Assembly: GCA_963699755.1 (NCBI GenBank)
Contig: CAVOVB010000002.1
Span: 224,001 to 288,000 of the forward strand
Direction: 5' to 3'
DNA length: 64,000 nt
Origin: an uncultured delta proteobacterium
GTDB taxonomy: Bacteria; Myxococcota_A; Polyangia; Polyangiales; Houyiibacteriaceae
The notes under the pieces: generated by a model
What the model was told of the DNA's origin: nothing
The model's input: the letters and a program-made list of their open reading frames with translations, nothing else
Databases searched by the model: none
Position numbers and translations under genes: made by a program
Part shown: positions 22,153 to 54,742 of the stretch, piece after piece
Position numbering within the stretch: position 1 is the first letter of the stretch
Layout: each line of letters begins with the position of its first letter

Positions 22153-22166
22153 TAGAACGTGTTCTA
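22153..22166. promoter_or_regulatory. KstR-type operator 1 (hsaA / amidohydrolase divergon)
   Basis: TAGAACGTGTTCTA fits TnnAACnnGTTnnA and overlaps the -10 of a minus-strand TGGACA-17-TAGAAC promoter. Confidence 0.85.
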
Positions 22167-22244
22167 GCCTACGGGCCAGGACATGTCCAGCGGGCCACTC
22201 TTGATCATAGGGCCCCGCTGAGGACCTCGAAAGGAAGCGATTTC

Positions 22245-23117
22245 ATGCCGATGCCAACGGGCCTCAGAGCCATCGACCTGATGATGAACATCCCCGACGG
22301 CGATCCTACAGCCTGGTACGAGTTCATCAAGCCGCTGCTGCTCGATGAGGAGAGCCAAGAGGTCTTCAAGATGCCGGCCCAGTACATGTTCAAGGACATC
22401 CCGGAGATCGGCGATCAGAAGGACTATGTCCACTACGCGATCGGCGAGATGGACAAATGGGGCATTCAGCGCGCGATGCTCGGGATTTCGGGACCCAACT
22501 CGACCAACCTCGAAGCCTGCCAAAACTACCCCGACCGCTTCTTTCCCTCCTATGGCGCCAACCCCAACAACGGCATGGCCGAGGTTCGGAAGATTCGGCA
22601 GCTCCACAGAGACCACGGTCTCAAGGCGGTGACCGGCTTCCCCTCGGGCCTCTGCCCGCAGGTTCCGCTGAACGACAAGAAGTACTATCCGATCTATGCG
22701 ACCTGCGTTGACCTGGACATCCCGATTTGCCTCTGCGTGGGGGTCCCAGGCCCGCGCATCCCGATGGCGCCGCAGAAGGTCGAGCACATCGATGAGGTGT
22801 GCTGGTTTTTTCCGGAGCTCAAGCTCGTCATGCGCCACGGAGGTGAGCCCTGGGTCGACCTCGCGGTCAAGCTGATGCTCAAGTACCCAAACCTCTACTA
22901 CAGCACGAGCGCCTTCGCACCGAAGCACTACCCGAAGTCGATCATCCACTACGCGAACACGCGCGGCGCCGACAAGATCATGTACGCCGGCTACTTCCCG
23001 ATGGGCCTCTCGCTCGAGCGTATCTTCACCGAGATGCGAGACGTCCCCTTCAAAGACAGGGTTTGGCCGAAGTTTCTCCGGGAGAACGCGATTCGCGTGT
23101 TCAAGCTCGAGGACTAG
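22245..23117 (+). CDS. Amidohydrolase-2 family metallo-hydrolase
   Basis: YYPIYATCVDLDIPIC, FPELKLVMRHGGEPW, YYSTSAFAPKHYP, DKIMYAG. Similar proteins occur in actinobacterial sterol clusters. Confidence 0.8.
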   Translation: MPMPTGLRAIDLMMNIPDGDPTAWYEFIKPLLLDEESQEVFKMPAQYMFKDIPEIGDQKDYVHYAIGEMDKWGIQRAMLGISGPNSTNLEACQNYPDRFFPSYGANPNNGMAEVRKIRQLHRDHGLKAVTGFPSGLCPQVPLNDKKYYPIYATCVDLDIPICLCVGVPGPRIPMAPQKVEHIDEVCWFFPELKLVMRHGGEPWVDLAVKLMLKYPNLYYSTSAFAPKHYPKSIIHYANTRGADKIMYAGYFPMGLSLERIFTEMRDVPFKDRVWPKFLRENAIRVFKLED

Positions 23118-23122
23118 CTACC

Positions 23123-23710
23123 TCAAATGACGAAGGTGATGCCAAGCGGGAACACGAACTGAACGCCGTAGCGACCTTGGCCCGAGGTCTCGCTGTAGAA
23201 TCGAACCGTCGGAATGCCGAAATCGACCCAGAGCTTCTTGCTCATCTTATAGTTGAACGTGAGCGCGTCGAGCTGCACACCGATCAGGAACCTGTAGGCG
23301 TAGCCGCCTCCCACCCCGATGCCGACACGCCATAGCCAGCTCCAGTCCTTTCGGTGGCGGATGGGCACGAGGGTCCCGTAGGACGCGAAGAACGTCGCTG
23401 TTCCGCGGAGGCGCCAATCGATCCGGTTTGTCGTCGGCGCTGCCTCGAAGCCGAGCAGGTGCCGATGATCATCCCCGAGCAGAAGCCCACCCCGTACTGC
23501 AAAGAGCAGACTCGTCTCGTAGTAGGCCCTGCGCCCCGAGTCGGACTCTCCGTTCACGCCAAAGCCAGCGCCTAGCAGCCCGCCCACGAACCCCAGAGGC
23601 TTGCTTGGCGACGCGGCTTCGTCCGACTGCGCCCACGCCTTGCCTGCGCAACAGAACAAGCTGAGAGCAAGCAACACAGCATGAGCCATCTTCATCCTCC
23701 ACCTGGCCAT
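23123..23710 (-). CDS. Hypothetical exported protein, possible small outer-membrane beta-barrel
   Basis: Signal-peptide-like ...LLALSLFCCAGKAWA/Q; Gly/aromatic amphipathic strands; C-terminal VQFVFPLGITFVI. Confidence 0.55.
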   Translation of the reverse strand: MARWRMKMAHAVLLALSLFCCAGKAWAQSDEAASPSKPLGFVGGLLGAGFGVNGESDSGRRAYYETSLLFAVRGGLLLGDDHRHLLGFEAAPTTNRIDWRLRGTATFFASYGTLVPIRHRKDWSWLWRVGIGVGGGYAYRFLIGVQLDALTFNYKMSKKLWVDFGIPTVRFYSETSGQGRYGVQFVFPLGITFVI

Positions 23711-23744
23711 GCCGGAAAGCATAGTGGAAAAAGGCTGTGCCTTC

Positions 23745-25881: not shown

Positions 25882-26460
25882 CTACTCCGCCAAGAGGAGC
25901 TCGGCCGTCCTGTCGATGTCCTCGAGGAGCTGGGGCGCTTCGTGCAGGCCACCGGCCCAGCCCACGAAGGATGCAAACCAAACGTTCTGCAGAATTGACG
26001 CGATGGTACGCTCGCGGGCGTCGACGTCTCCACCCCATTCTCCTTGTTGAGACGCAGCCTGGCCGCGAATGGCGGCCATGACCATTGCAGTAATGAGGGC
26101 GTGGAAGCTGGCGACGCGCTCGGTGATGTTCGGATCACCGGAGGCCAGGGAGCGAACGAGGGCCTTCGCCAGATTTGGGCGGCGAAGAAGCCCCCTGGTG
26201 AGCGCCGAGAAAACGAAATGCACTCGCTCTCTAGGGCCGTCGCCCGGGACCGGCTGCTTGCCGATCTTGGCCACCAGCTTTTCGCTCTCTTGCTCGAGCG
26301 CGGCGATTAGGATTTCTTCTTTGCTGGAAAAGCGCTTGTACACCGTGCCGAGGGCAACTTGCGCGCTAGCCGCGACGTCGCGCAGCCGAACCGCCTGGTA
26401 GCCATCGCGCTCTGCAAGTGCGACTGCGGTTTCGACGATGCGCTTGGCTCGATCGTCCAT
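25882..26460 (-). CDS. kstR: TetR-family regulator, KstR-like
   Basis: HTH GYQAVRLRDVAASAQVALGTVYKRFSSK closely parallels mycobacterial KstR as recalled (GYEAVQMRAVADRADVAVGTLYRYFPSK); C-terminal IASILQNVW also resembles KstR. KstR boxes lie nearby. Confidence 0.8.
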   Translation of the reverse strand: MDDRAKRIVETAVALAERDGYQAVRLRDVAASAQVALGTVYKRFSSKEEILIAALEQESEKLVAKIGKQPVPGDGPRERVHFVFSALTRGLLRRPNLAKALVRSLASGDPNITERVASFHALITAMVMAAIRGQAASQQGEWGGDVDARERTIASILQNVWFASFVGWAGGLHEAPQLLEDIDRTAELLLAE

Positions 26461-26462
26461 CG

Positions 26463-27434
26463 CTAGTACCCGACCTCTGCCTGCGGCATGTAGAATTTCT
26501 GATACCAGCGCCGCAGGGCTCCCACGTCGCCATCACCATCGCAGAGAATCGGCCGCGTTCGGTACTTCTTATTCTCCCAGATCGCGATATCTTCCTTGAA
26601 CCCGACGATGATGTTCTCGCGGTAGCCTTCCTGAAACTGCTCCTTGCCCTCTTTGACGTTCGAGATGTCGATCATCGCGCCAATTCGCACGTGAACGCGG
26701 TTCTTGTCGACCGGAGTGTGGCACAAGAGCATGATGTTCGGCAGAACGCTCTGCATCTTGGTGAGCATGTAGCCAGGGCCGTAGTACGTGGACTGGAGCT
26801 CGAAGTGGTCTTCACCTCCGCCCCGCGGATAGGCCACGCCCTTCACTTTTTGAATGCCGATGTGCTCCTTGAACTCGTTGCCGAACTCGTTGGCCCAGGT
26901 GCCGTGCACTGGGCCGAAGTGCCCTTTGTCCGCGAGGTTCTCGACGATCTCTTTAGGGTGCGTCTTGATGTCGATCAGGGCCGAGCCCCAGTCGGTCCAA
27001 CCTTCGTTGCCGTACTCCGGAATGTCCGGGATCTCCCAGGTGGGCTCTTCGCCTTCGATGTGAGCGTTCCATGTGAAAATCAGACCGTTGTGCTCCTGCA
27101 CGGGGCGGTTCGTCACGCAGGCGCGCGGCGGTATCCGCTTGGCATAGGGCACGTCCACGCACTTGCCGGTTTCATCAAAGCGCCAGGCATGGAAAGGACA
27201 CTGGATCGACTCGCCGATGACCTTGCCGCCATGGCCGAGGTGTGCCCCGAGGTGCGGACAAAACGCGTCGTGCACGATCGCTCTGCCGCTTTGGCCCCGG
27301 TAAAGGACCATCTCCCGACCGAAGTACTTGATCGGGCGGACCTCGCCAAGCGCAAGCTCAGCAGATACACCTACGACGAACCAGCCACGCGGATAGCCAG
27401 GAAAGAGCTCCTCTTCTTCTTGCGCTGCTGACAT
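26463..27434 (-). CDS. kshA: Rieske non-heme iron oxygenase, 3-ketosteroid 9alpha-hydroxylase (KshA)-like
   Basis: Rieske CPHLGAH...CPFHAW; mononuclear Fe ENLADKGHFGPVH; C-terminal DIAIWENK...LCDGDG...LRRWYQKFY. Confidence 0.72.
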   Translation of the reverse strand: MSAAQEEEELFPGYPRGWFVVGVSAELALGEVRPIKYFGREMVLYRGQSGRAIVHDAFCPHLGAHLGHGGKVIGESIQCPFHAWRFDETGKCVDVPYAKRIPPRACVTNRPVQEHNGLIFTWNAHIEGEEPTWEIPDIPEYGNEGWTDWGSALIDIKTHPKEIVENLADKGHFGPVHGTWANEFGNEFKEHIGIQKVKGVAYPRGGGEDHFELQSTYYGPGYMLTKMQSVLPNIMLLCHTPVDKNRVHVRIGAMIDISNVKEGKEQFQEGYRENIIVGFKEDIAIWENKKYRTRPILCDGDGDVGALRRWYQKFYMPQAEVGY

Positions 27435-27471
27435 GTGATGCCTCTTGGGTTCAATGCTGGTTGATGCGAGC

Positions 27472-29076
27472 CTAGGCGCTCGCCTGCGCACGGGCGATCT
27501 CCTCGGCCCAGCTGTAGTCGGGCTTTCCGCTCGGCATGCGGGAAACCGTCTCGGTGATCGTGATCTGCCGCGGGACCTTGTAGCCGGCGATGTGCTTGCG
27601 GCAATGCTCCTGCACCTGCTCGAGAGAGAGCTGCTGATTCCCCCGCGTGTTGAACACCGCAGCGACCTTGGACCCGAAACGAGGATCTGGAACCGCCACG
27701 ACCAGGGCATCGATGACGTCCGGGTGTGCCTTGAGCGCTTCTTCCACTTCTTCGGGGAACACCTTCTCGCCACCGGTGTTGATGCACTTGCTGCCCCGGC
27801 CGAGGAAGGTAATCCTGCCGTCTTCTTCAATCGTCGCGAAGTCCCCAGGCACGACCCAGCGCTTACCTTTGAATTCCTTGAAGCGCTCGGCGGTCTTCTC
27901 GGCATCTTTGTAGTAGCCGAGGGGAAGGCGGCCTGAGCGGGCTACCATTCCGACCTGGCCGGAGCCTGGCTCGATCTGATCGCCGTTCTCGTCCAAGACG
28001 GTGACCTCGTCTCCCATGTAGAACGAGGGACGGTTCTCGTGGCTCTCCTCGTCGCCCGCGGCACGCCCGAGGTCGCCCGATTCACTCGTCCCAAAGCTGT
28101 TGATGATCATGACGTCGGGGAGCAGGGATTCGAGCTCCTCCTGAATGCTCGCAGAGAGAATCGCGCCAGCGGATGCGATCACCGCTAGATTCGACATGTC
28201 GTAGTCGCCGCTCTTGAGCTCCTCGATCAGCGGAATTGCCATCGCGTCGCCCACGAGCGAGAGCGTCGATACTTCCTCTTCGGCCACGAGTGACAAGATT
28301 CGCTTGGCGTCGAAGCTCGGGCCATTTTGAAGCACGAGCTTCCCACCTGTCATGTGGCAGATCCATTGGGTCCACTGCGCCGCCCCGTGAATGAAAGGAG
28401 CACAGGGAAGCATGGTCACCGTGTACCAGCCCTCTCTTGCCTGCTCGACCAGCTGCTCCGGTGATTCCACCGGATCGCCGCCTGGCGACCCGCCTTGAAG
28501 ACCTGTGAAGAACAAGTCCTCATGTCGCCACATCACGCCCTTGGGCATCCCGGTCGTCCCGCCGGTGTAGATGATGTAGAGGTCTTTGCCGGACCTCGGT
28601 CCGAAATCACGCTCCTCGGATCCTTGCGCAAGCGCCGCTTCGTACTCGATCGACTCCTGGTTCGCGAAACCCTTGGCGCCGTCTTCGATGACGAGGAGCG
28701 CCCTGAGTGGCTCGAGGCCTTCCATGGCCTCGTTGATGACAGGCAAGAAGCGCCGCTGCGTGATCACCCCCACCAGGTCCGCGTTTTCGATCATGTAGCG
28801 AACTTCGGGACCCACGAACCTGTAGTTCATGTTGATGCCAACGGCGCGAATCTTGAAAAGGGCGAGAATCGCTTCGACGAACTCGTGACCGTTGAAGAGG
28901 TGCAGCCCGACGTGGTCGCCGGGGCCGATGCCGCGGGATAGTAGGTAGTGCGCAAGGCGGTTGGCCCGCTTGTCGAGGTCTTTGTACGTGTGGTGGATGT
29001 CGCCCGAGGCCAGAGCGACATTGTCGGGAACGGCGTCCGCAATAGCCTCGTACAGATCTGCAAGATTGTATTCCAT
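27472..29076 (-). CDS. fadD19: Steroid side-chain acyl-CoA synthetase, FadD19-like
   Basis: YNLADLYEAIADAVPD, YTGGTTGMPKGVMWRHED, GRGSKCINTGGEKVFPEEVE, PSGKPDY. Confidence 0.78.
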   Translation of the reverse strand: MEYNLADLYEAIADAVPDNVALASGDIHHTYKDLDKRANRLAHYLLSRGIGPGDHVGLHLFNGHEFVEAILALFKIRAVGINMNYRFVGPEVRYMIENADLVGVITQRRFLPVINEAMEGLEPLRALLVIEDGAKGFANQESIEYEAALAQGSEERDFGPRSGKDLYIIYTGGTTGMPKGVMWRHEDLFFTGLQGGSPGGDPVESPEQLVEQAREGWYTVTMLPCAPFIHGAAQWTQWICHMTGGKLVLQNGPSFDAKRILSLVAEEEVSTLSLVGDAMAIPLIEELKSGDYDMSNLAVIASAGAILSASIQEELESLLPDVMIINSFGTSESGDLGRAAGDEESHENRPSFYMGDEVTVLDENGDQIEPGSGQVGMVARSGRLPLGYYKDAEKTAERFKEFKGKRWVVPGDFATIEEDGRITFLGRGSKCINTGGEKVFPEEVEEALKAHPDVIDALVVAVPDPRFGSKVAAVFNTRGNQQLSLEQVQEHCRKHIAGYKVPRQITITETVSRMPSGKPDYSWAEEIARAQASA

Positions 29077-29088
29077 CGTTTGTCCGGC

Positions 29089-30237
29089 TCAGCGTTCCGA
29101 GCTCACGATCCACATCGCGAAGAACTGCGAGCCGCCTCCGTAGGCGTGACCGAGGGCGACCTTCGCGCCGTCGACCTGATGTTTGTCGGCTGTCCCCCGC
29201 ACCTGGCGCGCGGCTTCGGCGAATCGGAGCATACCACTGGCACCAATCGGATTGGTGCACATGACGCCGCCAGACATGTTCCAAGGCATCTCGCCGTCGA
29301 TTCTCGTCTTGCCTTCCATGGTCATCCTCCAGCCTTCGCCTTCTTCGGCGAATCCGAGGTTTTCGAGCCACATCGGCTCGAACCAAGAGAAAGGAACGTA
29401 GACTTCGGCACAGTCGATCTCTTTGACTGGGTTGCGGATCCCGGCCTCATCGTAGACGTCTCTTGCGCAGAGCTTTCCGGCGGCCGGGTTCACCTGGTCA
29501 CGTCCCGCAAAGAACGTGCGCTCGGTTCGAACCGAGGTCCCCTTCACCCAGGCGGGGTTCTTCACTCGTCCGGCGTGCTTGTCGTTGACGAGGACCATCG
29601 CCACGGCGCCGTCCGAAGAAGGACAGGTCTCCGAGTAGCGAATCGGATCCCAGAGCATCGGCGATGCCTTGACCTGTTCGAGCGTCTGGTCGAGGTGCAG
29701 ATGCGCGTCAGGGTTGAGTAAGCCGTTCTGCCGATCCTTGACGGCGACCATGCAGCCCGTGTCTGGGTGCGCGTCGGAGCGACGGATATACGAACGAATG
29801 AGGGGGGCGAAGTAGCCGCCAGCGCCGGCAACTAGCTGCGGCTGAAAGGGAATCGCCGGTGAGAGCGCCCACATGGCGTTGGACTCGCTCTGCTTCTCAA
29901 ACGCAAGCGTGAGGACCTTTTCGTGTACGCCAGCCTGTACGAGGTGAGACGCCACGACGGCGGTCGACCCTCCCACCGAACCGGCGGTGTGCACGCGGAG
30001 CATCGGTTTCCCGGCAGCGCCCAACGCATCCGACAACCAAAGCTCCGGCATCATGACGCCTTCGAACATATCGGGCGCCGTACCGATGACGATGGAATCG
30101 ATGTCCTTCCAGGTCATGTCCGCGTCTGAGAGCGCGCGAAGGGCTGCGTCTCGCACCAGGCCTGGAATCGAAAGGTCGCGACGACTTTCGCGATGCTTGG
30201 TCTGGCCGATCCCGATGACCGCACATTGATCAGCCAT
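29089..30237 (-). CDS. ltp3: SCP-x-type thiolase-like aldolase Ltp3
   Basis: FEGVMMPEL, RVHTAGSVGGST, EKQSESNAMWALS, ETCPSSDGA, GHAYGGGSQFF. Confidence 0.87.
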   Translation of the reverse strand: MADQCAVIGIGQTKHRESRRDLSIPGLVRDAALRALSDADMTWKDIDSIVIGTAPDMFEGVMMPELWLSDALGAAGKPMLRVHTAGSVGGSTAVVASHLVQAGVHEKVLTLAFEKQSESNAMWALSPAIPFQPQLVAGAGGYFAPLIRSYIRRSDAHPDTGCMVAVKDRQNGLLNPDAHLHLDQTLEQVKASPMLWDPIRYSETCPSSDGAVAMVLVNDKHAGRVKNPAWVKGTSVRTERTFFAGRDQVNPAAGKLCARDVYDEAGIRNPVKEIDCAEVYVPFSWFEPMWLENLGFAEEGEGWRMTMEGKTRIDGEMPWNMSGGVMCTNPIGASGMLRFAEAARQVRGTADKHQVDGAKVALGHAYGGGSQFFAMWIVSSER

Positions 30238-31292
30238 TATTCCCCCTCCAAGACGGCAACGAGGTTGTGTTGGAGGCAGACACCGTTGGTGGTGTGTGCC
30301 AGTGCGCGGTCTGCATCTCCGGAGAGGATCCGGGCCGCCGCCTCACCGAAGCGAATCAGCCCCGCGGTCATCAGCGCGTTTGCGGCCAAGGCGCCACCGG
30401 AAGGATTGACGTTCACCTCGTCACCGATACCCATCGCCTCGCGCAAGATGATCTCCTGGTGGGCGAAAGGCGCATGGAGCTCTGCGAGGTCGACTTGGCC
30501 CTTCCCGAGACCCGCCTTTTCGGCTGCGAGCGTCGAAGACGGCGACCTCGTGAGGTCACGTTGGCCGAGGGCATGCGGCTCGGTCCGATGGTCGATCCCC
30601 CGAATCCAAGCCGGTCGCTTCACCAGCCTCTTTGCCGCATCCCCAGCGGCCAACACGATGGCTGCGGCCGAGTCGGAGAGCGGCGAGCAGAAACTCTTGC
30701 GCAAAGGGGAGCTGATGTACGGCTCTTCGAGCATTTCATCGACGCTGAAGTCGCCCTTGATCTGCGCGTTTGGGTTGTCCACCGCGCTCCTTCGATTGCG
30801 CGCGACGACCTCCGCAAAGTCTCGCTCCGTTGCCTTGCCTGCGTCGATCAGTGCCTGGGCCTGGAGCGCGGCAGCGCTGATCGAGTCGAGGCCGAGAGGC
30901 TGCACGTAGTAGGGATCATTCTGCAGATTCAGGATGTCGGGAACCGGGCCGAGCGAGCTCTTTCCAAAGGAGAACACGAGCGCGGTGTCGATGTCGCCGT
31001 GCAAGAGCCGGACCCAGGCTTCGTAGAGCGCGAAGGCGCCGTCCATTTCGACGTGTGACTCGCGAATCGGAGGGAAGGCCTTGAGGCCATCCACCGCTGC
31101 GACAAAGGAGAAGGGACGCCCCGGCAGATAGTCGGTGCTCCCCGAGCAAGTGAAGCCGATGTCGTCTTGCGTGAGACCAACCTGCCTCATCGCATCCGAG
31201 GTGACCGGTTGGACCAGCTCCGGCTCGTCCGCGGCGTCGATAACTTTCACCGACGGAAGCTGTGAGAAGGAAACGATCGCGACGTCGCGCAT
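30237..31292 (-). CDS. ltp4: Thiolase-like protein Ltp4
   Basis: CSGSTDYLPGRPFSF, PPIRESHVEMDGAFALYEAW, FGKSS; adjacent to ltp3. Confidence 0.87.
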   Translation of the reverse strand: MRDVAIVSFSQLPSVKVIDAADEPELVQPVTSDAMRQVGLTQDDIGFTCSGSTDYLPGRPFSFVAAVDGLKAFPPIRESHVEMDGAFALYEAWVRLLHGDIDTALVFSFGKSSLGPVPDILNLQNDPYYVQPLGLDSISAAALQAQALIDAGKATERDFAEVVARNRRSAVDNPNAQIKGDFSVDEMLEEPYISSPLRKSFCSPLSDSAAAIVLAAGDAAKRLVKRPAWIRGIDHRTEPHALGQRDLTRSPSSTLAAEKAGLGKGQVDLAELHAPFAHQEIILREAMGIGDEVNVNPSGGALAANALMTAGLIRFGEAAARILSGDADRALAHTTNGVCLQHNLVAVLEGE

Positions 31293-32200: not shown

Positions 32201-32227
32201 GGGTGTATACCGCCTGGATCTGGGCTC

Positions 32228-32563: not shown

Positions 32564-32605
32564 GTTCACCTCCCGGTTCCGGGTCGAAAAAGGGTCCACT
32601 AGAAG

Positions 32606-32619
32606 TGAAACGTGTTCTA
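32606..32619. promoter_or_regulatory. KstR-type operator 2 (SCP2-DUF35-ltp4-ltp3-fadD19-kshA-kstR operon)
   Basis: TGAAACGTGTTCTA; overlaps the -10 of minus-strand TTGACG (32642-32637)-17-TAGAAC (32619-32614). Confidence 0.85.
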
Positions 32620-34364: not shown

Positions 34365-34431
34365 CTGAACCTCGCTATGAACTTCTCTTTAGGGGGAGTG
34401 GATGTCGCACGCAAGGCGCTACCCAGTGAGC

Positions 34432-35445: not shown

Positions 35446-35449
35446 GACG

Positions 35450-36610: not shown

Positions 36611-36619
36611 CGCTTTGGC

Positions 36620-39581: not shown

Positions 39582-39590
39582 GAAGCTACC

Positions 39591-43306: not shown

Positions 43307-43343
43307 CGGCTGAGCCGGCCAATTAGACTGAGCATCGGGGACC

Positions 43344-45451: not shown

Positions 45452-45454
45452 GTC

Positions 45455-46675
45455 ATGCCCGAAGCCGTGATCGTTTCAACCGCGCGGACCCCGATCGGCC
45501 GCGCCTTCAAGGGGTCGCTGATTGAAATGCGCCCCGACGACCTCGCCGCGATCGCGGTGAAGGCAGCTTTGGCAAAGGTTCCGAACCTCGACCCGGCCAC
45601 CGTCGAGGACTTGATGATCGGCTGCGCTCAACCCGCGGGCGAACATGGCTACAACATGGGTCGAGTCGTGAGCCTGCTAGCGGGCCTCGATTCGCCTGGC
45701 ACGACGGTCAATCGTTATTGCTCTTCGTCCTTGCAGACGATCCGCATGGCGGCTCATGCGATCAAGGCCGGTGAAGGCGATGTGTTCGTGGCCGCAGGCG
45801 TCGAGTGTGTCAGCCGCTTCGGTCTCGGCAAATCCGACGGCATGGAGAACACCAAGAACCCGAAGTTCAACGAGGCCGAGGAGCGCATGGCGAAGCTCAT
45901 GACGCCCGAGGGCGGCAACTGGGAGCCGACCGACGGTCTCGGCGATGTGTACGTCACGATGCTCCAAACCGCGGAGAACGTCGCGCAGTACATGGCCGTG
46001 TCCCGGCAAGAGCAAGACGAGTTCGCTGCCCTTTCACAACAGCGCGCCGAAGCCGCGCAGAAGTCTGGCCACTTCGCCAAAGAGATCACGCCGGTCGCGA
46101 CGCCCAGCGGTGTGGTAGTCGACACCGATGACTGCCCGCGCCACGGAACGACTGCGGAGAAGCTCGCTGGGCTCAAGCCGGTGCTCCTAGGGCAGATGGG
46201 CGAAAGGGCCACGGTGACGGCGGGCAACGCCTGTCCGCTCAACGACGGCGCCGCCGCGGTCGTCGTAATGAGCGAGACCCGCGCCAAAGCGCTCGGCATC
46301 ACGCCTCTGGCGCGCGTCGTCTCGACCGGCGTCTCCGCGCTCAACCCCGAGATCATGGGCCTAGGCCCCGTCGAAGCGACCAAGCAGGCGCTTGGGCGCG
46401 CCGGGCTGACGATGAAAGACATCGATCTAGTGGAAATCAACGAGGCCTTCGCCGCGCAGGTCATTCCCTCCGCCCGCGAGCTCGGCATTCCCATCGACAA
46501 GCTCAACGTGAACGGTGGCGCGATCGCCCTCGGCCACCCCTTCGGGCAGACCGGCGCTCGCATCATGACGACCCTGATCAACAACCTCCAGTCACGCGAC
46601 GGGCGCTACGGGGTCGAAACGATGTGCGTCGGCGGCGGTCAGGGCATGGCTGCCGTGATCGAACGGCTGGGCTGA
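45455..46675 (+). CDS. Acetyl-CoA C-acetyltransferase (thiolase)
   Basis: TVNRYCSSSLQ, TAGNACPLNDGA, NEAFA, GHPFGQTG, MCVGGGQG. Confidence 0.92.
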   Translation: MPEAVIVSTARTPIGRAFKGSLIEMRPDDLAAIAVKAALAKVPNLDPATVEDLMIGCAQPAGEHGYNMGRVVSLLAGLDSPGTTVNRYCSSSLQTIRMAAHAIKAGEGDVFVAAGVECVSRFGLGKSDGMENTKNPKFNEAEERMAKLMTPEGGNWEPTDGLGDVYVTMLQTAENVAQYMAVSRQEQDEFAALSQQRAEAAQKSGHFAKEITPVATPSGVVVDTDDCPRHGTTAEKLAGLKPVLLGQMGERATVTAGNACPLNDGAAAVVVMSETRAKALGITPLARVVSTGVSALNPEIMGLGPVEATKQALGRAGLTMKDIDLVEINEAFAAQVIPSARELGIPIDKLNVNGGAIALGHPFGQTGARIMTTLINNLQSRDGRYGVETMCVGGGQGMAAVIERLG

Positions 46676-47863: not shown

Positions 47864-47877
47864 TGAAACATGTTTCA
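47864..47877. promoter_or_regulatory. KstR-type operator 4 (oxidoreductase-SDR-SDR-ACAD-fadE30-ipdF operon)
   Basis: Perfect palindrome TGAAACATGTTTCA, 12 bp upstream of GTG 47890. Flanks AAG...GTC are identical to operator 3. Confidence 0.85.
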
Positions 47878-47889: not shown

Positions 47890-48912
47890 GTGGCGGAGGT
47901 CAATCGACAGATCTTGTTGAGAAGGCGGCCCGTTGGGGCGCCAACTGCGGGGGATTTCGAAGCTAGCGAGGGCCCTCTCGGACGGCCAGGGACGGGGGAG
48001 GTTCTCCTCCGGAATCTATATCTATCTATCGACCCGGCGATTCGCGGATGGATGAGTGATGCGAAGTCATATCTGCCACCGATTGGGATCGGCGAGCCGA
48101 TTCGAAGCGGGACGCTCTCCCAGATCATCGAATCCAAGGCCGAAGCTTGGCCGGTCGGACAGATCGTCCAGGCCCTGGCTGCTTGGGAGTCGTACAGCGT
48201 GGTTTCCTCTCGAATGCTTCACGGCAGGGTGAAGAGGATGGAGGGGATTCCGCTATCCGCGATGTTGAGCGTCCTCGGGGGCACAGGCCTGACCGCGTAT
48301 TTTGGCTTGCTCGAAGTCGGGAAACCCAAGGAAGGGGAGACCGTTCTGGTGTCCGCCGCGGCGGGCGGCGTGGGATCGATCGTCGGACAGATCGCAAAGG
48401 TCCAAGGCTGTCGGGCCGTAGGACTGACAGGCAGCGACGAGAAGTGCGTTTGGCTGACCGACGAGCTCGGCTACGACGCGGCGATCAACTACAAGACGAC
48501 GGACTTGCGACTTGCCCTGAAGGAAACCTGCCCCGAGGGGGTCGACGTGTTTTTCGACAGCGTGGGCGGCGAGATCCTCAACACGGTTCTGACTCGCCTC
48601 AACTACCACGGTCGTGTGGTCGTCTGCGGCGCGATCTCGCAGATCAACGAGGCAGAGCTCCCGTCCGGGCCCCGCAACTATTTGCAGCTCCTCGCCAAGA
48701 GCGCCCGGATGGAAGGATTCACGACCTTGGATTTCACCACGCGCTATGATGAGGCACGCGCGAACCTCGCGCGTTGGATTCGCGAGGGTCAGATTCAGTA
48801 TCGCGACGAGGTCGCCAAAGGGCTAGATGAGGCTCCGTTGCACTTGCTTCGACTGTTCAGCGGCGAGCATCGAGGAAAACTGATGGTCAAGTTGGCGGAC
48901 GCAGAGGGTTGA
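47890..48912 (+). CDS. NADP-dependent double-bond reductase (prostaglandin reductase/CurA-like MDR)
   Basis: YLSIDPAIRGWM, GLTAYFGLL, VSAAAGGVGSIVGQIAK, CGAISQ. Confidence 0.9.
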   Translation: MAEVNRQILLRRRPVGAPTAGDFEASEGPLGRPGTGEVLLRNLYLSIDPAIRGWMSDAKSYLPPIGIGEPIRSGTLSQIIESKAEAWPVGQIVQALAAWESYSVVSSRMLHGRVKRMEGIPLSAMLSVLGGTGLTAYFGLLEVGKPKEGETVLVSAAAGGVGSIVGQIAKVQGCRAVGLTGSDEKCVWLTDELGYDAAINYKTTDLRLALKETCPEGVDVFFDSVGGEILNTVLTRLNYHGRVVVCGAISQINEAELPSGPRNYLQLLAKSARMEGFTTLDFTTRYDEARANLARWIREGQIQYRDEVAKGLDEAPLHLLRLFSGEHRGKLMVKLADAEG

Positions 48913-48914
48913 GA

Positions 48915-49820
48915 ATGACTGGCATTTGTGATGGACGGGTGGTGATTGTGACCGGCGCAGGACGCGGCATTGGCCGTGAGCATGCGCTCGAGCTCGCGCG
49001 GCAGGGTGCGAAAGTCGTCGTCAACGACCTCGGTGTGAGCAACAGCGGCGAAGGCGGAGGTCAAGGACCGGCGGACGAAGTCGTGAAAGCGATTCGTGAT
49101 ATGGGCGGCGAGGCGGTGTCCAACGGTGCCGACGTTGCGGACTGGACACAGAGCGAGGCACTGGTGCGACAAGCGATCGACGAGTTCGGGCGCCTCGACG
49201 CGGTCGTGAACAACGCCGGCTTCGTCCGAGACCGCATGTTCGTGAGCTGCAGTGAAGAGGAATGGGATGCGATCATTCGCGTTCACCTCAAGGGGCACTT
49301 CTGCGTCGCCCGACACGCGGCGGCCTATTGGCGAGAGCAGGTCAAGGCCGGTGAGCCGGTCAACGCACGGATCATCAACACGAGCTCGGGCGCGGGAGTG
49401 CTCGGCAGCGTCGGCCAGTCGAGCTACTCCGCCGCGAAGGCGGGCATCGCGACGCTGACCCTGGTGCAGGCGGCCGAGCTCGGCCGCTACGGGATCACCG
49501 CCAACGCGATTTGCCCGATCGCGCGCACGCGAATGACCGAAGGCGCGTTCGGCGACGCGATGAAGGCGCCCGACGAAGGCTTCGACGAGAACGACCCAGC
49601 CAACGTCTCGCCGTTCATCGCCTGGCTCGCCAGCCAGGAGTCGCGCGACGTGACGGGTCGAGTCTGGGAGGTCTTCGGCGGAACAGTCACGCTCTTCGAT
49701 GGCTACCGCCGGGAGCAAACGATGAACATCGGCAAGCGATGGAACCCAGCGGAGCTCGGCCCGGCCGTGAAAGAATTGCTCTCGAAGGCGCAGCCACCTG
49801 TCAGGGTGTACGGCGCATGA
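48915..49820 (+). CDS. SDR, Rv3548c-like
   Basis: GRVVIVTGAGRGIGREHAL, VVVNDLG, NNAGFVRDRM, ARIINTSSGAG, YSAAK. Confidence 0.85.
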   Translation: MTGICDGRVVIVTGAGRGIGREHALELARQGAKVVVNDLGVSNSGEGGGQGPADEVVKAIRDMGGEAVSNGADVADWTQSEALVRQAIDEFGRLDAVVNNAGFVRDRMFVSCSEEEWDAIIRVHLKGHFCVARHAAAYWREQVKAGEPVNARIINTSSGAGVLGSVGQSSYSAAKAGIATLTLVQAAELGRYGITANAICPIARTRMTEGAFGDAMKAPDEGFDENDPANVSPFIAWLASQESRDVTGRVWEVFGGTVTLFDGYRREQTMNIGKRWNPAELGPAVKELLSKAQPPVRVYGA

Positions 49821-50599
49821 GCGAGCCCCTCGACTTCAGCGGCCGGGCTGTACTGATCACCGGCGGAAGCCGTGGGATCGGCCGAGGTATCGCCGAAGCA
49901 TTCCTCGCGGCTGGAGCCGATGTCGCCGTATGCGGCCGCAAAGAGCCCGACGAGCTGCCGAACGCAGGCGGCAAGCGCGCGATCTTCGTCAGCGCCGACG
50001 TTCGGGATGCGGAGCAGGTCGAGAAGATGGTGAACCAAGTGGTCGGGCTCTTGGGGCGACTCGACGTGCTGGTGAACAATGCCGGTGGCGCCCCCTTTGC
50101 GGAGGCAGCGACTGCCTCTCCACGCTTTTCGGAGAAGATCATTCAGCTGAACCTGACAGCGGCGCTTCATTGTGCGCAGCAGGCAAACCGCGTGATGCAG
50201 GGCCAGGACTCCGGCGGCTCGATCATCAATATCGCCAGCGTGTCCGGGGTGCGCCCTTCCCCCGGCACCGCGGCCTACGGCGCCGCAAAGGCGGGGCTCA
50301 TCAACCTGACTGCCACCCTCGCCATCGAGTGGGCTCCCAAAGTGCGCGTCAATTCCATCGCAGCGGGCTTGATTCGTACCGAGCAAGCCCATCTACATTA
50401 CGGCGACGAAGAAGGCATTGCCCGCGTGGCGGCGACGGTCCCGCTACAGCGCCTCGGCACGCCCGCCGACATCGCGGGAGCGTGCATGTTCTTCGCGTCT
50501 CGACTCTCGTCCTACGTGAGCGGCGCCAACCTAGTTCTGCACGGCGGCGGACAAACCCCTGCGTTCCTCTCTGCCGCTAGTGTCAACCAAGGAGACTGA
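49817..50599 (+). CDS. SDR, Rv3549c-like
   Basis: TGGSRGIG, NNAGGAP, RPSPGTAAYGAAKAG, LAIEWAPKVRVN; ATGA-coupled. Confidence 0.85.
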   Translation: MSEPLDFSGRAVLITGGSRGIGRGIAEAFLAAGADVAVCGRKEPDELPNAGGKRAIFVSADVRDAEQVEKMVNQVVGLLGRLDVLVNNAGGAPFAEAATASPRFSEKIIQLNLTAALHCAQQANRVMQGQDSGGSIINIASVSGVRPSPGTAAYGAAKAGLINLTATLAIEWAPKVRVNSIAAGLIRTEQAHLHYGDEEGIARVAATVPLQRLGTPADIAGACMFFASRLSSYVSGANLVLHGGGQTPAFLSAASVNQGD

Positions 50600-50603
50600 G
50601 CGA

Positions 50604-51743
50604 ATGGAGTTTTCGTTCTCGGAAGATCAGCATGAGCTTAGAAGAGCCGCACGCCGGTTCCTGGAAGTCCAGTCATCTGAGGAGCGCGTTCGGAGTGCCA
50701 TGGAAACCGAACGAGGCTACGACCCGGCGACCTGGGAGCAGCTATCCGAAGAGCTCGCATGGACGGCGCTGACCATCCCGGAAGCGTACGGGGGCCTCGG
50801 CATGAGCTACCTCGAGCTGCATCCCCTGATGGAGGAGATGGGTCGCGCGCTGCTCTGCTCGCCGTTCTTCTCGACGATTTGTTTGGGCGCCAACGCCCTT
50901 CTTCTCGCTGGTAGCGAAGGCCAGAAGCAGCGCTACCTCCCCGAGATCGCAGCCGGCACTACGAAGCCAACGCTGGCGTACGCCGAGAAGAACAATCGGA
51001 TGGATGCGCTCGGCGTAGAAGCGACCTACTCGCGGAGCGGATCTGGCTACGCCTTGCGTGGCGAGAAGCGCTACGTCCTCGATGGACACACGGCCGAGCT
51101 CTTGGTCGTCGCGGCACGCTCCGAAGGCAGCACCGGCGCCGAGGGGGTCAGCTTGTTCCTCGTCTCGGGCGACGCGCAGGGCCTCGAGCGCCGCTGGCTC
51201 CCAACGATGGACCAGACTCGACGCCTGGCATCTGTGGTGCTCGCTGACGTGGCCATTTCGGACGACGCCCTGCTCGGCGAAGAAGGCAGGGGTTGGGAGC
51301 TCTGTGAAAGGACACTGGATCTGGCGCGGATCGCTCTCGCGGCAGAGCAAGTGGGCGCTGCAGAAATGTGCCTCGAAATGTCGGTCGAATACGCGAAGGT
51401 GCGTAAGCAGTTCGGCCGGCCGATCGGTTCGTTTCAGTCGATCAAGCACAAGTGCGCCGACATGCTGATGATGGTCGAGTCGGCACGCTCCGCGGCCTTC
51501 TACGCCAGCGCGCTGGCGGCGCAGGGTGACGACGGGCTTAGCGAAGCAGCCTCGAGCGCCAAAGCATATTGCTCGGACACCTTCTTCCACTGTGCTGCCG
51601 AGAACATCCAGATTCACGGAGGCATCGGGTTCACCTGGGAGCATGCGGCCCATCTGTACTTCAAGCGCGCCAAGTCGAGCGAGACGCTTCTTGGCGACCC
51701 GTCCTTTCACCGCGAGCGAGTCGCACGATGCATGGGTTTGTGA
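50604..51743 (+). CDS. Acyl-CoA dehydrogenase partner subunit (IpdE2/FadE33-like by context)
   Basis: RKQFGRPIGSFQSIKH, IQIHGGIGFTWEH; TGATG-coupled to the fadE30-like gene. Confidence 0.82.
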   Translation: MEFSFSEDQHELRRAARRFLEVQSSEERVRSAMETERGYDPATWEQLSEELAWTALTIPEAYGGLGMSYLELHPLMEEMGRALLCSPFFSTICLGANALLLAGSEGQKQRYLPEIAAGTTKPTLAYAEKNNRMDALGVEATYSRSGSGYALRGEKRYVLDGHTAELLVVAARSEGSTGAEGVSLFLVSGDAQGLERRWLPTMDQTRRLASVVLADVAISDDALLGEEGRGWELCERTLDLARIALAAEQVGAAEMCLEMSVEYAKVRKQFGRPIGSFQSIKHKCADMLMMVESARSAAFYASALAAQGDDGLSEAASSAKAYCSDTFFHCAAENIQIHGGIGFTWEHAAHLYFKRAKSSETLLGDPSFHRERVARCMGL

Positions 51744-52918
51744 TGGAGCTACAGCTAAACGAACGAGAGAAGGCGTTTCGCAAAGAGGCTCGCACCTGGT
51801 TGCAGGAGCAGCTCACAGGCCCGTTCAAGAGCCTCCAAGGCCGTGGCGCCTCGGGCGACCAGGACACCTACGTTGAAGAGCGAATTGCTTGGGGCAAGGT
51901 CATGGGCGCCGCTGGTTGGAACTGCATTGGCTGGCCCAAGGAGTTCGGTGGGCGCGGCTGCTCGATCAAGGAGGAAGCGGTTTTCAACGAGGAGTACGTC
52001 CGCGCGAACGGTCCCGGCAACATAGGTCACATAGGCGAGACCCTGCTCGGACCGACCTTGATCCACTTCGGCTCGCCGGAACAGCAGAAGCGCTTCTTGC
52101 CACCGATCGTCTCCTGCGACGAGATCTGGTGTCAGGGGTACTCGGAACCCGGCGCGGGGTCGGATCTCGCCAATGTGCAGACGAAAGCAAGCCTGGTCGG
52201 AGACGAGTGGATCATCGAGGGGCAAAAGATCTGGACCTCGGGTGCGCAGTACTCGGACTGGTGCTTCGTGCTCTGCCGGACGGACGCCGAGGCCCCGAAG
52301 CACCGAGGCATCAGCTATATCTTGGTTCCGATGAAACAGGACGGCGTCGAGGTCCGACCAATCAAGCAAATGGGCGGCAGCTCAGAGTTTGCGGAGGTCT
52401 TCTTCGACGGCGCCAAGGCCGAGAAGGACCACGTCGTTGGCGGCGTGAACAACGGATGGAAAGTTGCCATGGGCACGCTCGCCTTCGAGCGTGGTGCGTC
52501 GACGCTCGGGCAGCAGTACCTCTTTCAGAAGGAATTCGAGCAAGTGGTAGCCGTTGCCAAGCGGACAGGCGCCGCGGAAGATCCGATCTTCCGCCAGCGA
52601 ATCGCAGACGCCTGGATTGGGCTCAAGATCATGCGGGTCAACGCACTCCGAATGCTCGAGCACGAAGGCGCCGACCTAAACCGAGAAGCGCTCATCAGCA
52701 AGCTCTACTGGTCGAACTGGCACCGCGACCTCGGCAAGCTCGCCATGGACCTGCTCGGTCCCGAAGCCGAGCTCCTCGATGGCGCACCCTACCAGCTGAC
52801 TGCGATGCAGAAGTGGTATCTCTTTTCGCGAGCGGACACGATCTACGCGGGCTCGAATCAAATTCAACGAAACATCATTGGCGAGCGAGGACTTGGGCTA
52901 CCAAAGGAGCCGCGATGA
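51743..52918 (+). CDS. fadE30: Acyl-CoA dehydrogenase IpdE1/FadE30-like
   Basis: HIGETLLGPTL, WCQGYSEPGAGSDLANV, AMGTLAFERG, YLFSRADTIYAGSNQIQRN. Confidence 0.82.
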   Translation: MELQLNEREKAFRKEARTWLQEQLTGPFKSLQGRGASGDQDTYVEERIAWGKVMGAAGWNCIGWPKEFGGRGCSIKEEAVFNEEYVRANGPGNIGHIGETLLGPTLIHFGSPEQQKRFLPPIVSCDEIWCQGYSEPGAGSDLANVQTKASLVGDEWIIEGQKIWTSGAQYSDWCFVLCRTDAEAPKHRGISYILVPMKQDGVEVRPIKQMGGSSEFAEVFFDGAKAEKDHVVGGVNNGWKVAMGTLAFERGASTLGQQYLFQKEFEQVVAVAKRTGAAEDPIFRQRIADAWIGLKIMRVNALRMLEHEGADLNREALISKLYWSNWHRDLGKLAMDLLGPEAELLDGAPYQLTAMQKWYLFSRADTIYAGSNQIQRNIIGERGLGLPKEPR

Positions 52919-53697
52919 GCAACAAACCCACATACGTCGGCGGGCACGGCCTGCTCGAAGGTAAGACCGTCCTCGTCACAGCGGCCGCGGGCACAGGCAT
53001 CGGATTCGCCACTGCGATTCGCTGCGCGGAAGAGGGGGCTTCGGGTCTGATGATTAGCGACATCCACGAGCGACGACTCGGTGAAGCCGCCGACAAGATC
53101 GAAGCCGAAACCAGCGTCCGCCCGGAGACCGTCATCTGCAACGTCACCAATGAGGACGAAGTCCGGGCGATGTTCGAACTGGCCACTGAAAAGATGGGGC
53201 ACGTCGACGTGTTGATGAACAACGCCGGGCTCGGAGGCTACGCCAAGATCGTCGACATGACCGATGAGCAGTGGCACCTGGTGCTCGACGTCACCCTCAA
53301 TGGCTGCTTCCGTTGCACCCGCGCGGCGCTCAAGCACATGATGCCGCGCGGGAGGGGCGCGATCGTGAACAATGCCTCGGTCCTCGGCTGGCGCGCCCAA
53401 GAAGGGCAGTCACACTACGCGGCCGCGAAGGCGGGCGTCATGGCGCTCACCCGATGCGCGGCCATCGAAGCCGCTGACGCCAACGTGCGCGTCAATTGCG
53501 TCTCGCCATCGCTCGCGATGCACCCGTTCCTCGAGAAGGTCACCCCACCCGGCCTGCTCGAAGAGCTCCAAAAGCGGGAGGCATTCGGCCGCGGTGCCGA
53601 GCCCTGGGAGATTTCGAACGTCATGGTCTTCTTGGCGAGCGACTACAGCTCCTACATGACGGGCGAGGTGGTCTCGGTGTCGAGCCAGCGCGCCTGA
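52915..53697 (+). CDS. ipdF: SDR IpdF (Rv3559c-like)
   Basis: GHGLLEGKTVLVTAAAGTGIG, NNASVLGWRAQ, HYAAAKAG, MTGEVVSVSSQRA. Confidence 0.85.
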   Translation: MSNKPTYVGGHGLLEGKTVLVTAAAGTGIGFATAIRCAEEGASGLMISDIHERRLGEAADKIEAETSVRPETVICNVTNEDEVRAMFELATEKMGHVDVLMNNAGLGGYAKIVDMTDEQWHLVLDVTLNGCFRCTRAALKHMMPRGRGAIVNNASVLGWRAQEGQSHYAAAKAGVMALTRCAAIEAADANVRVNCVSPSLAMHPFLEKVTPPGLLEELQKREAFGRGAEPWEISNVMVFLASDYSSYMTGEVVSVSSQRA

Positions 53698-53699
53698 GA

Positions 53700-54677
53700 C
53701 TAGACGCGGCTCTTCCGGACCTGCCAGGCGTCGGAATACCTCAACATGTACCAGCGGATGAGCGGCGCAAACATCCGCACCAGGGGCCGCGTGAAGCGTG
53801 ATGCTTTCCGCATCTGGCCAATGAACTCCTCGAAGCTGGTTCGCTGGTAGGCCAAGAGCGATTGACTCTCCTTGGTGTCGAGCCAATCGCAGTAGTAGAT
53901 GCCGCTGCCATAGGCTTCGACCGGAAAACGCCCTACGCCCGTCGCGTCGAACATCGCACCATAGAGCTCACGAAACGTCAGTCGGCAGCTCTCGCCGCCG
54001 CCGATCATCAAGGTCTTGCCGACCGCCTCCGGGTTTTCGATGGCGCGCACCTGAGCAAGCGCAACGTCCTCGGGATGCACCCATTCGAGACGCGTCTCCG
54101 GGTTGATGCTGAAGAGCAAGCGAAAGACGTCCGGCGAGAGGTCGCCCGCCGCTGCTTTGACCCCTACCGACACGCCGATTCGAAAGATCACGTACGGCAG
54201 GCCCGATTCCCGAAGGAGCCGCTCGCACTCGGCCTTGTTCGAGGTATAGAAGTCGGTCCCGATCGCGGGGTCCTTGCCGGTCAGCGGTGGTCCGCCCGGC
54301 GCACGGGGCCCGCAGACCGACAGGGACGACGCGAAGACGATGACCGGGGGACGTTCCCTACGTTTCATCGCTTCCAGGAGGTTCTGGGTACCCCCCACGT
54401 TGACCGCGTACGCCAGGTCCGGATGGCTCTCCGAGACCGGCGCCAGCACGCCCGCGTTGTGGATGATCGCATCGGCCTCCAGGACTGCCGGCCCGATGTC
54501 CCCGGCCGATCGGATGTCGCCCCAGACGACTCGAATCCTCTCCGCGAACCGCCTTGCTGCCTTCTCGTTTCGGCGATTCGGCACGTCAAAGGCGGTCACC
54601 GAATATCCCTCTTTCAAGAGACGCTCGATGGCCTCTTGTCCAAGCCGACCAAACGCCCCCGTCACCAGCACGCGCAT
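53700..54677 (-). CDS. NAD-dependent epimerase/dehydratase (extended SDR; 3beta-HSD-like by context)
   Basis: VLVTGAFGRLG, VNVGGTQNL, FASSLSV, YTSNK. Confidence 0.8.
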   Translation of the reverse strand: MRVLVTGAFGRLGQEAIERLLKEGYSVTAFDVPNRRNEKAARRFAERIRVVWGDIRSAGDIGPAVLEADAIIHNAGVLAPVSESHPDLAYAVNVGGTQNLLEAMKRRERPPVIVFASSLSVCGPRAPGGPPLTGKDPAIGTDFYTSNKAECERLLRESGLPYVIFRIGVSVGVKAAAGDLSPDVFRLLFSINPETRLEWVHPEDVALAQVRAIENPEAVGKTLMIGGGESCRLTFRELYGAMFDATGVGRFPVEAYGSGIYYCDWLDTKESQSLLAYQRTSFEEFIGQMRKASRFTRPLVRMFAPLIRWYMLRYSDAWQVRKSRV

Positions 54678-54713
54678 CCGCGCAGGCTGACCTGCAGCCG
54701 TGCGCGCTTCAAA

Positions 54714-54742
54714 TTGAAACACGTTCTTCTTCCTGATAGGGT
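54714..54742 (+). promoter_or_regulatory. Putative promoter of the F420 operon overlapped by KstR-type operator 5
   Basis: TTGAAA (54714-54719)-17-TAGGGT (54737-54742). TGAAACACGTTCTT (54715-54728) matches the KstR box except for the final base. Confidence 0.68.

Follow-up and report, generated by a model that had tools for sequence, protein, structure and literature searches.

A probable KstR-type regulon for steroid catabolism in an uncultured Polyangiales-like member of the Myxococcota

KstR regulons have been studied in mycolic-acid actinobacteria for their control of cholesterol use, and Myxococcota are known as sterol producers. We analyzed a stretch of 64,000 nucleotides from the genome of an uncultured bacterium (G000, contig C2, positions 224001-288000; hereafter the window), which belongs to an assembly of 5.35 Mb in 11 contigs with a G+C content of 62.5%. 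The window carries a cluster of genes resembling those of steroid catabolism, a gene for a KstR-like repressor of the TetR family, and five palindromes that are its proposed operators. A preliminary description of this DNA had listed the five operators, and each reads as given there. Exact matches to the loose pattern TNNAACNNGTTNNA occur at four positions, 22153, 32606, 40381 and 47864, and read as TnnAACnnGTTnnA, the core of the KstR operator; dinucleotide-preserving shuffles yielded a mean of 0.24 matches, and none of 100 shuffles attained four. The fifth site (54715..54728, TGAAACACGTTCTT) carries one mismatch. When one mismatch is allowed, the window contains 11 matches against 8.1 expected, so site 5 cannot rest on that count alone.

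All five sites lie in intergenic DNA at the head of one or two transcription units, as had been claimed. Operator 1 (TAGAACGTGTTCTA, 22153..22166) is located between the hsaA-like operon on the minus strand and an amidohydrolase gene on the plus strand, and is positionally conserved in related loci. Operator 2 (32606..32619) heads the minus-strand operon that runs from an SCP2 gene through a KshA-like gene to the TetR gene, and stands about 42 nt upstream of the conserved SCP2 start codon (ATG). Operator 3 (TGAAACGCGTTTCA, 40381..40394) heads the C/D-ring operon, 28 nt before echA20, and is itself preceded by a small conserved gene on the same strand. Operator 4 (TGAAACATGTTTCA, 47864..47877) heads a plus-strand operon with enone-reductase-like, SDR and FadE genes, and 12 nt separate its end from the GTG start codon of the first gene (47864-47892 region); the transcript behind it may be leaderless or nearly so. 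Each of these last two operators is identical in sequence in the related genomes G001, G003 and G004, and the two share 18 of 20 bases, flanks included, in agreement with the preliminary description. Operator 5 is found between a 3beta-hydroxysteroid dehydrogenase/epimerase-like SDR gene (minus strand, start 54677) and an LLM-npdG-cofE-cofD-cofC operon (plus strand, start 54782); like site 1, it occupies a divergent promoter region. This site was at first scored as coding because the adjoining SDR gene had been called too long. Family matches to the SDR protein start at residue 42, that is at the ATG at 54677 (reading MRVLVTG), and with this corrected start site 5 lies 37 nt upstream of the SDR gene and 53 nt upstream of the opposite ATG at 54782. 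Near site 3, a plus-strand open reading frame at 40420-40803 was rejected; the conserved frame there is on the minus strand, at 40424-40903. Its product (43-71% identity) is one of two small proteins in the cluster that lack a family match and are kept in three relatives, the other being encoded at 43344-43757 on the plus strand (56-77% identity).

The regulator gene (25882..26460, minus strand) encodes a TetR-family protein of 192 amino acids that we propose, from profile, structure and tree comparisons, as the operator-binding protein. It starts 2 nt after kshA, as the seventh gene in the operon behind operator 2, which bears out its earlier placement near the end of that operon. TetR family membership follows from matches to TetR_N (PF00440, 2e-12) and TetR_C_20 (1.2e-13). 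In a sequence search of the PDB, the best match was KstR of Mycobacterium tuberculosis (E 1.2e-22, 83.7 bits), followed by a TetR protein of Rhodococcus RHA1 at 63.9 bits; all others scored at most 36.5 bits, including KstR2 at 22 bits. Identity to KstR, counted on the printed alignment, amounts to about 57 of 188 positions; among the first 58, about 26 are identical. Among NCBIfam models KstR is the top family at 124.4 bits, the next scoring 42. An AlphaFold model computed from a 60-sequence alignment has nine helices and a predicted local distance difference test score of 95.2. Compared with known structures using Foldseek, among the matches listed, the model retrieved M. tuberculosis KstR chains at ranks 1-11, 13 and 15, with ranks 12, 14, 16 and 17 being further chains of entries already listed. 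These KstR chains align with template modelling (TM) scores of 0.78-0.91, root-mean-square deviations (rmsd) of 1.8-2.5 A and identities of 29-31%, the DNA-bound forms fitting best; 3BJB comes next and then, after a gap, the acyl-CoA-binding regulators FadR and FasR at TM 0.55-0.66. The protein is thus KstR-like in the broad sense, with KstR as its best match in both sequence and fold. Of 34 TetR_N matches in the genome, it is the single clear KstR-like protein. On the far side of the gene, an rRNA methyltransferase gene, rlmKL (23745-25844, minus strand, 784 bits), begins 37 nt after it on the same strand and may be read through from the steroid operon.

To place the five sites in the context of the whole genome, we used a crude gene model (codon-usage log-odds with greedy selection; about 4,500 genes, about 88.5% coding, starts approximate). 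The loose pattern occurs 48 times genome-wide, and a sharper motif, TRRAAC-N2-GTTYYA (T[AG][AG]AAC..GTT[CT][CT]A), fits 23 of these. Nineteen of the 23 strict sites are intergenic, and the other four have a 6-nt overlap with a called start, which arises only from the caller's choice of the ATG inside ...AACATGTT...; 23 of the 25 loose matches outside the sharper form are coding. The comparison of coding with intergenic frequency that the preliminary description had proposed therefore favors it, strict sites being never truly coding. A position weight matrix (PWM) built from the 23 strict sites and their reverse complements found 24 matches of at least 20 bits, all 24 intergenic; the match beyond the strict set is at C1:82551 (TAGAACATGTACTA). 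Site 5 of the window follows as the 25th best match in the whole genome, at 18.9 bits, and is kept at the equivalent place in two of three relatives compared, G001 having the same mismatch and G003 a perfect site; in the third, G004, none was found. The matrix also extends the motif: 38 of the 46 oriented sites have A at -2 and T at +15 (A-n-TRRAACnnGTTYYA-n-T). Operator sites are spread over four contigs (C1, C2, C5 and C7) and are restricted to 5' or intergenic DNA adjoining steroid genes. Before KshA-like paralogues they also occur in tandem, 15 bp start to start, at C1:1833862/1833877 and C7:168843/168858, and a similar pair is found in G001 (C14:158402/158417).

We examined how the window sites are positioned relative to promoter elements. 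Three sites had been described as overlapping promoters with 17-bp spacing. This is confirmed in part: by eye, such promoters can be read at sites 1, 2 and 5, but a generic sigma-70 scan of 22000-41000 flagged no operator site; the scan missed them because TAGAAC is without the final T that it requires. At site 2 the promoter reads TTGACG-N17-TAGAAC, with the -35 element at 32637-32642 (minus strand) and the operator covering the -10, an arrangement kept in 32 aligned sequences. The alignment of these 32 operon-head regions shows, in order, CTTGACG, a variable 17-nt spacer ending in CAAAA, the operator, and GGGAGGTG followed by ATG. Site 1 reads TGGACA-N17-TAGAAC, with TGGACA at 22184-22189 (minus strand) and the TAGAAC half-site in the -10 position. 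The operator of site 3 is preceded, at a distance of 7 nt, by a conserved TTGACC (40402-40407, minus strand). The promoter at site 5, TTGAAA-N17-TAGGGT, has its -35 overlapped by the operator; this arrangement is kept in three sequences, with the -10-like TAGGGT reading TAGCGT in G003. Promoter overlap is thus conserved at sites 2, 3 and 5. A general -35-like hexamer 16-18 nt upstream of the operators was rejected, with at least four of six matches at 5 of 23 sites against a 17% background, so the statement that the operator equals the -10 is limited to sites 1 and 2. Operator position relative to the -35 is therefore non-uniform, yet each arrangement would obstruct RNA polymerase.

The genes behind these operators are named here by their best Pfam or NCBIfam matches, as family-level assignments with orthology unproven. 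The hsaA-like operon (14994..22119, minus strand) includes an HsaA-like oxygenase, an HsaEFG-type set (2-oxopent-4-enoate hydratase, acetaldehyde dehydrogenase and aldolase), a FadE pair and an SDR. The genes cotranscribed with the TetR gene behind operator 2 (26463..32599, minus strand) encode a KshA-like Rieske oxygenase (26463-27434; KshA_C, 6e-52), an acyl-CoA synthetase (27472-29076; PRK07798, 693 bits against a cut-off of 543), a thiolase-like Ltp pair (29089-31292), a ChsH2-like OB-fold protein (31292-32200) and SCP2 (32228-32599, with the likely start at an ATG near 32564). Behind operator 3, the C/D-ring-type operon (33210..40352, minus strand) encodes an EchA20-like protein (PRK07938, 391 bits against a cut-off of 260), the IpdA and IpdB CoA-transferase subunits, an NMO/FabK-like (IpdC-like) reductase, two FadE proteins (IpdE2-like) and a thiolase (PRK07801, 708 bits against a cut-off of 591). 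The plus-strand operon at 40948..46675 contains genes for a fadD3-family ligase, an SDR, a conserved 137-aa protein, a CasG-like ligase resembling steroid-24-oyl-CoA synthetases and a thiolase (PRK07851). The operon behind operator 4 (47890..53697, plus strand) encodes an NADPH-dependent enone reductase-like protein, the SDRs PRK07791 and PRK07856, a FadE pair and a further SDR (PRK07831).

The operon behind operator 5 (54782..58826, plus strand) encodes an F420-dependent LLM oxidoreductase of the Rv3520c family (368 bits versus 335), an NADPH-dependent F420 reductase (npdG), CofE, CofD and CofC. This operator heads F420 genes, and a gene for a deazaflavin-dependent protein occurs in an operator-linked KstD-like operon elsewhere in the genome; F420 supply therefore appears to be co-regulated with steroid catabolism. 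A full F420 gene set adjoins the steroid cluster, at 54782-62991; its minus-strand part, which has no operator, comprises an SDR, cofH and cofG as separate genes and a second LLM. We judge F420 biosynthesis linked to a steroid operator to be unusual for a Myxococcota genome.

Outside the window, we examined by best match the genes flanking 17 further site regions. These include a KshB-like reductase, KshA-like oxygenases at three loci, a KshA-like gene with a second HsaA, an HsaB-like flavin reductase, HsaD with an HsaC-like gene just upstream, a KstD-like gene with a deazaflavin-dependent protein of the nitroreductase family, a ChsH2-like gene with Ltp (PRK06059, 710 versus 424), a PRK07121 FAD protein with a cholesterol-oxidase-like gene, a FadE pair, a GMC oxidoreductase, a P450 and an NMO-type reductase. 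Two pairs of aldehyde dehydrogenase and lipase genes each lie beside a large FG-GAP protein; these FG-GAP paralogues, of about 800 aa (C1:1723311-1725695 and C7:277079-279484), are each encoded opposite the operator-headed pair. A fasciclin-domain protein is encoded opposite the tandem operators on C1. An operator at C2:205198, 39 nt upstream of a gene for a PaaX-like regulator (a weak Pfam match), hints at a regulatory cascade. Another operator-headed operon contains FadA, FadB/J and FadL, the last a FadL/TodX-type outer-membrane channel on which uptake seems to rely. With a squalene/oxidosqualene cyclase query (PF13243), the genome gave a 28-bit partial match only and no sign of sterol synthesis.

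The pairing of regulator and operators recurs in other genomes. Relatives of the TetR protein at 59-93% identity were collected in 52 loci of species-representative genomes, 47 of them titled Myxococcales, Polyangiales, Polyangiaceae, Sandaracinaceae, Myxococcota or delta proteobacterium; four others are titled 'uncultured bacterium' or have no visible title, and one is labelled Coxiellaceae. Across these loci (780 kb), all 71 loose matches to the operator pattern fit the strict form. Of the 35 loci with enough flanking sequence, 34 have a strict site at the operon head, about 6.15 kb upstream of the TetR gene, and the 35th, from a metagenome-assembled genome (MAG) of Sandaracinaceae at 62% identity, has one 5.3 kb upstream; a second site recurs 3-6 kb downstream, on the hsaA side, in related loci. 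In the whole genomes of five relatives we counted 17-20 strict sites each, against 0-3 for a reversed-pattern control. The earlier proposal that regulator and operator occur together in a Myxococcota-like host is hence supported, and the arrangement is positionally conserved in related MAGs.

We next considered a sample of 151 Myxococcota genomes drawn evenly across the phylum, the host genome included, in which TetR-positive denotes a relative at E 1e-25 or better. Forty-six genomes are TetR-positive, including 8 of 8 from the window's family, 1 of 11 from the next family and many others. The TetR-positive genomes have a median of 7 strict sites (control median 1) and the 105 TetR-negative genomes a median of 1 (control median 2). 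An excess of at least four sites over the control is present in 33 of the 46 TetR-positive genomes versus 5 of the 105 TetR-negative ones; the Mann-Whitney p of 1e-15 overstates the case, related genomes not being independent. Motif excess thus tracks the presence of the TetR gene across the sampled phylum.

Together, these observations make it very probable that the central part of a regulon for aerobic 9,10-seco steroid catabolism lies in the window, in a Polyangiales-like member of the Myxococcota, and that this regulon is run by a single KstR-like TetR protein acting on the operator palindromes. From the sequence patterns and the likeness to KstR, we infer that the protein would bind as a dimer to TRRAAC-N2-GTTYYA at about 24 sites in the genome, five of them in the window, and that, with these sites overlapping the -35, spacer or -10 of steroid catabolic promoters, transcription would be blocked. 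The TetR gene is the seventh behind operator 2 and therefore would, judging by the operon structure, be repressed by its own product. By analogy with KstR, a steroid-CoA thioester made early in the pathway may release the repressor.

Several findings weigh against this reading, and the first group concerns the regulator itself. At 124.4 bits, the protein falls well below the cut-off of 280 bits of the NF033703 KstR equivalog model and does not have equivalog status. We searched exhaustively the sequence representatives clustered at 50% identity, obtaining 4,474 matches with E-values up to 1e-3, of which 55 reached 1e-30 or better, and scanned 123 full-length representatives taken from the best 150; NF033703 was the sole family at E 1e-25 or better, and none of the 123 scored at least 280 bits, the highest being 268.8 for a cluster named Marmoricola. 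A FastTree phylogeny of 116 rows (the query, 6 named Myxococcota homologues, 104 of the 123 representatives and 5 TetR proteins of the host genome) was constructed after 19 representatives had been dropped by eye for a partial query match or odd length; its support values are local only. All 28 included representatives with at least 140 bits to the KstR model clustered into one 34-row clade (support 96), and the query was placed in a separate 74-row clade (support 100), beside the KstR-proximal clade and not inside it. KstR remains the best match in sequence and fold, but the protein belongs to a sister clade outside the NCBI equivalog. Names in the query clade that bear an organism are Polyangiales, Sandaracinaceae, Myxococcota, Bradymonadia and 'Deltaproteobacteria', and IMG automatic annotation names some homologues 'cholesterol catabolism regulator'. 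The helix-turn-helix region, in contrast, speaks for the reading: L15, V24, R27, V29, V35, L37, T39, L51 and G73 are conserved there at 80% or more in both clades, and the protein shares V24, R27, V29, V35, L37, T39 and L51 with the KstR-proximal clade but not with 12 other TetR proteins of the host. This common signature fits a shared operator specificity.

The second group concerns the link between protein and palindrome. TetR-negative genomes G043 and G071 are motif-rich, with 27 and 21 sites; no KstR-family match at E 1e-15 was found in G043, G071 or two further motif-rich genomes, G029 and G023, and none of the 19 TetR genes of G071 lies on a contig holding its motif sites, among the 13 of 21 sites listed. 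Four of the 46 TetR-positive genomes (G064, G013, G068 and G147) are without motif excess, and G064, which has the TetR gene and one site, is of the same family as the window. The host also encodes a second, weakly KstR-like TetR protein (C1:201754-202368), whose KstR-model score of 56.6-56.8 bits is the second best in the genome and about equal to its ScbR match; its gene is on contig C1, with kshB-like and kshA-like genes headed by operators within a few kb. These findings would fit an alternative in which the palindromes are steroid-regulon operators bound by another protein, either this second TetR or a non-TetR protein, with the window TetR controlling something else. We regard that alternative as unlikely. 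The window TetR is the sole protein with KstR as its best match, and the published KstR operator is the same palindrome (Kendall et al. 2007, PMC1995591, in excerpt). Its gene sits within an operator-headed steroid operon, at a fixed distance from the operator in nearly all loci, and across the phylum a motif excess goes with its presence; in the quick tree, the second TetR clusters with the outgroup TetR proteins. Both G043 and G071 are drafts, of 180 and 300 contigs, in which the regulator gene may be unassembled.

The functional assignment of the pathway genes can be questioned as well. Most Hsa, Kst and Ksh best matches fall below curated equivalog cut-offs (HsaA 410/450, HsaD 187/400, HsaC 222/450, KstD 592/789), and the genes linked to operators include FadA-FadB-FadL, aldehyde dehydrogenases and lipases. 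The regulator and its sites might then govern general lipid or fatty-acid beta-oxidation, the steroid names being over-annotations of oxygenase, thiolase and FadE families, and KstR itself was first described as a regulator of lipid metabolism (PMC1995591, in excerpt). We nonetheless consider this very unlikely, since a full 9,10-seco set is linked to the operators: KshA, KstD-like, HsaA, HsaB, HsaC, HsaD, HsaEFG type, IpdAB, EchA20-like, Ltp/ChsH2 and the FadD3-family ligase (761 bits against a cut-off of 657). One gap in the regulon counts against the preferred assignment too: no operator was detected at the fadD3 operon, and control of the C/D-ring branch by the KstR-like protein is only partly explained.

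A last concern is the origin of the DNA. The assembly is estimated to be 100% complete, with 9.04% contamination. Many enzymes of the cluster score above the NCBI cut-offs of PRK models, and these models derive mostly from mycobacterial proteins; the window also encodes F420-dependent enzymes and F420 biosynthesis, both typical of actinobacteria. It could thus be supposed that the steroid cluster and its regulator are actinobacterial DNA mis-binned into a Myxococcota MAG, an explanation to which we give almost no weight. The window also carries ilv and leu genes, and for the housekeeping protein IlvC, encoded 20 kb from the TetR gene, the closest named relatives (76-93% identity) come from Polyangiales, Myxococcota and Sandaracinaceae MAGs, with one Luteitalea at 76%; the 93% match is to Polyangiales proteins, and TetR relatives come from the same groups. 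G+C content is even across the window (59-64%), operator sites are distributed among the four contigs noted above, and the locus is common to independent MAGs from many studies. CofG and CofH are encoded by separate genes and CofE is single-domain, whereas actinobacteria fuse CofG and CofH as FbiC and carry CofE within a fused FbiB; in addition, a FadL-type outer-membrane channel is encoded in an operator-headed operon. The IlvC and TetR relatives, even G+C content, unfused CofG and CofH and the FadL channel therefore identify the host as a Polyangiales-like member of the Myxococcota and not an actinobacterium, as the preliminary description had thought probable.

That description also knew of no earlier account of the combination of regulator, operator and host, and literature searches found no report of it. 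No description of KstR or steroid catabolism in Myxococcota was found in the full-text literature searched, which was mostly without subscription journals, and the main texts of two surveys of steroid degraders (Bergstrand 2016 and Holert 2018) contain no word beginning 'Myxococc' or 'Deltaproteobacteria'. Lee et al. 2026 describe a sterol reductase in uncultured Myxococcota and Mycobacteriales; in the available portion of that paper, catabolic regulation is not treated. A wider generalization, for and against which we see the case as evenly balanced, is that a sizeable, mostly uncultured part of the Myxococcota possesses a sister lineage of KstR that has kept the exact mycobacterial operator at about 30% identity, with one operator type governing the complete 9,10-seco pathway, much of the C/D-ring branch and F420 supply. 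If this were true, Polyangiales-like bacteria would be an overlooked guild of steroid degraders, and regulator, operators and pathway would have either an ancient common origin or a history of wholesale transfer between Actinomycetota and Myxococcota. The system would also be a natural experiment in operator specificity surviving deep protein divergence, and a degrading lineage within a sterol-producing phylum raises the question of sterol turnover within the Myxococcota. The regulator-operator pair offers a cheap and specific genomic marker by which steroid catabolism could be recognized in uncultured Myxococcota. It also appears to tie F420 supply to the degradation of steroids, and its operators predict regulon members of unknown function, such as the FG-GAP proteins, the fasciclin protein, the PaaX-like regulator and small conserved proteins.

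Among known systems, the acyl-CoA-sensing TetR proteins (Thermus FadR, Bacillus FadR and mycobacterial FasR) are the next structural matches after KstR and 3BJB. They bind CoA thioesters, but fit the model with an rmsd above 5 A and differ in operators and regulons. KstR2 (Rv3557c) offers a second comparison. Its regulon includes echA20 and fadD3, and the window holds counterparts of these two genes and of ipdAB and ipdC. The latter are described as being under KstR2 in the portion of PMC5380842 available, whereas here the echA20-ipdAB operon carries a KstR-type operator. A KstR2-type consensus motif has 26 matches in the genome, 3 of them intergenic, which is background, and none in the cluster; given this and its low score against KstR2, the window TetR is not a member of that group.

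The closest counterpart is KstR itself (Rv3574/MSMEG_6042 of mycobacteria, and Rhodococcus). According to excerpts of Kendall et al. 2007 (PMC1995591), a KstR dimer binds probes with TAGAAC-N2-GTTCTA, partly overlapping the -10, and 16 and 31 further intergenic motifs occur in M. tuberculosis and M. smegmatis, one intergenic region having two copies. The two systems thus have the same operator core, TnnAACnnGTTnnA, in intergenic DNA of steroid or lipid catabolic genes, regulons of comparable size (16 and 31 motifs there, about 24 here), operators placed over promoter elements and some two-copy intergenic regions. They also regulate the same kind of pathway, and KstR is the best sequence and fold match, with the recognition-helix signature in common. 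The differences are of sequence and architecture. The window TetR is about 30% identical to KstR, below the equivalog cut-off and in a sister clade, and its gene is the seventh of a catabolic operon, whereas the mycobacterial gene is divergent from fadE34 with an operator in its own promoter (PMC1995591, in excerpt). In contrast to the mycobacterial case, the operator here also heads a C/D-ring operon and an F420-biosynthesis operon, and the regulon of this diderm host includes a FadL-type channel. Release of the window TetR by a 3-oxo-steroid CoA is proposed from its fold likeness to KstR complexes with 3-oxo-4-cholesten-26-oyl-CoA and 4-BNC-CoA. These data support the view that a known kind of system, the KstR-type regulon, is present in a new phylum with an architecture of its own.

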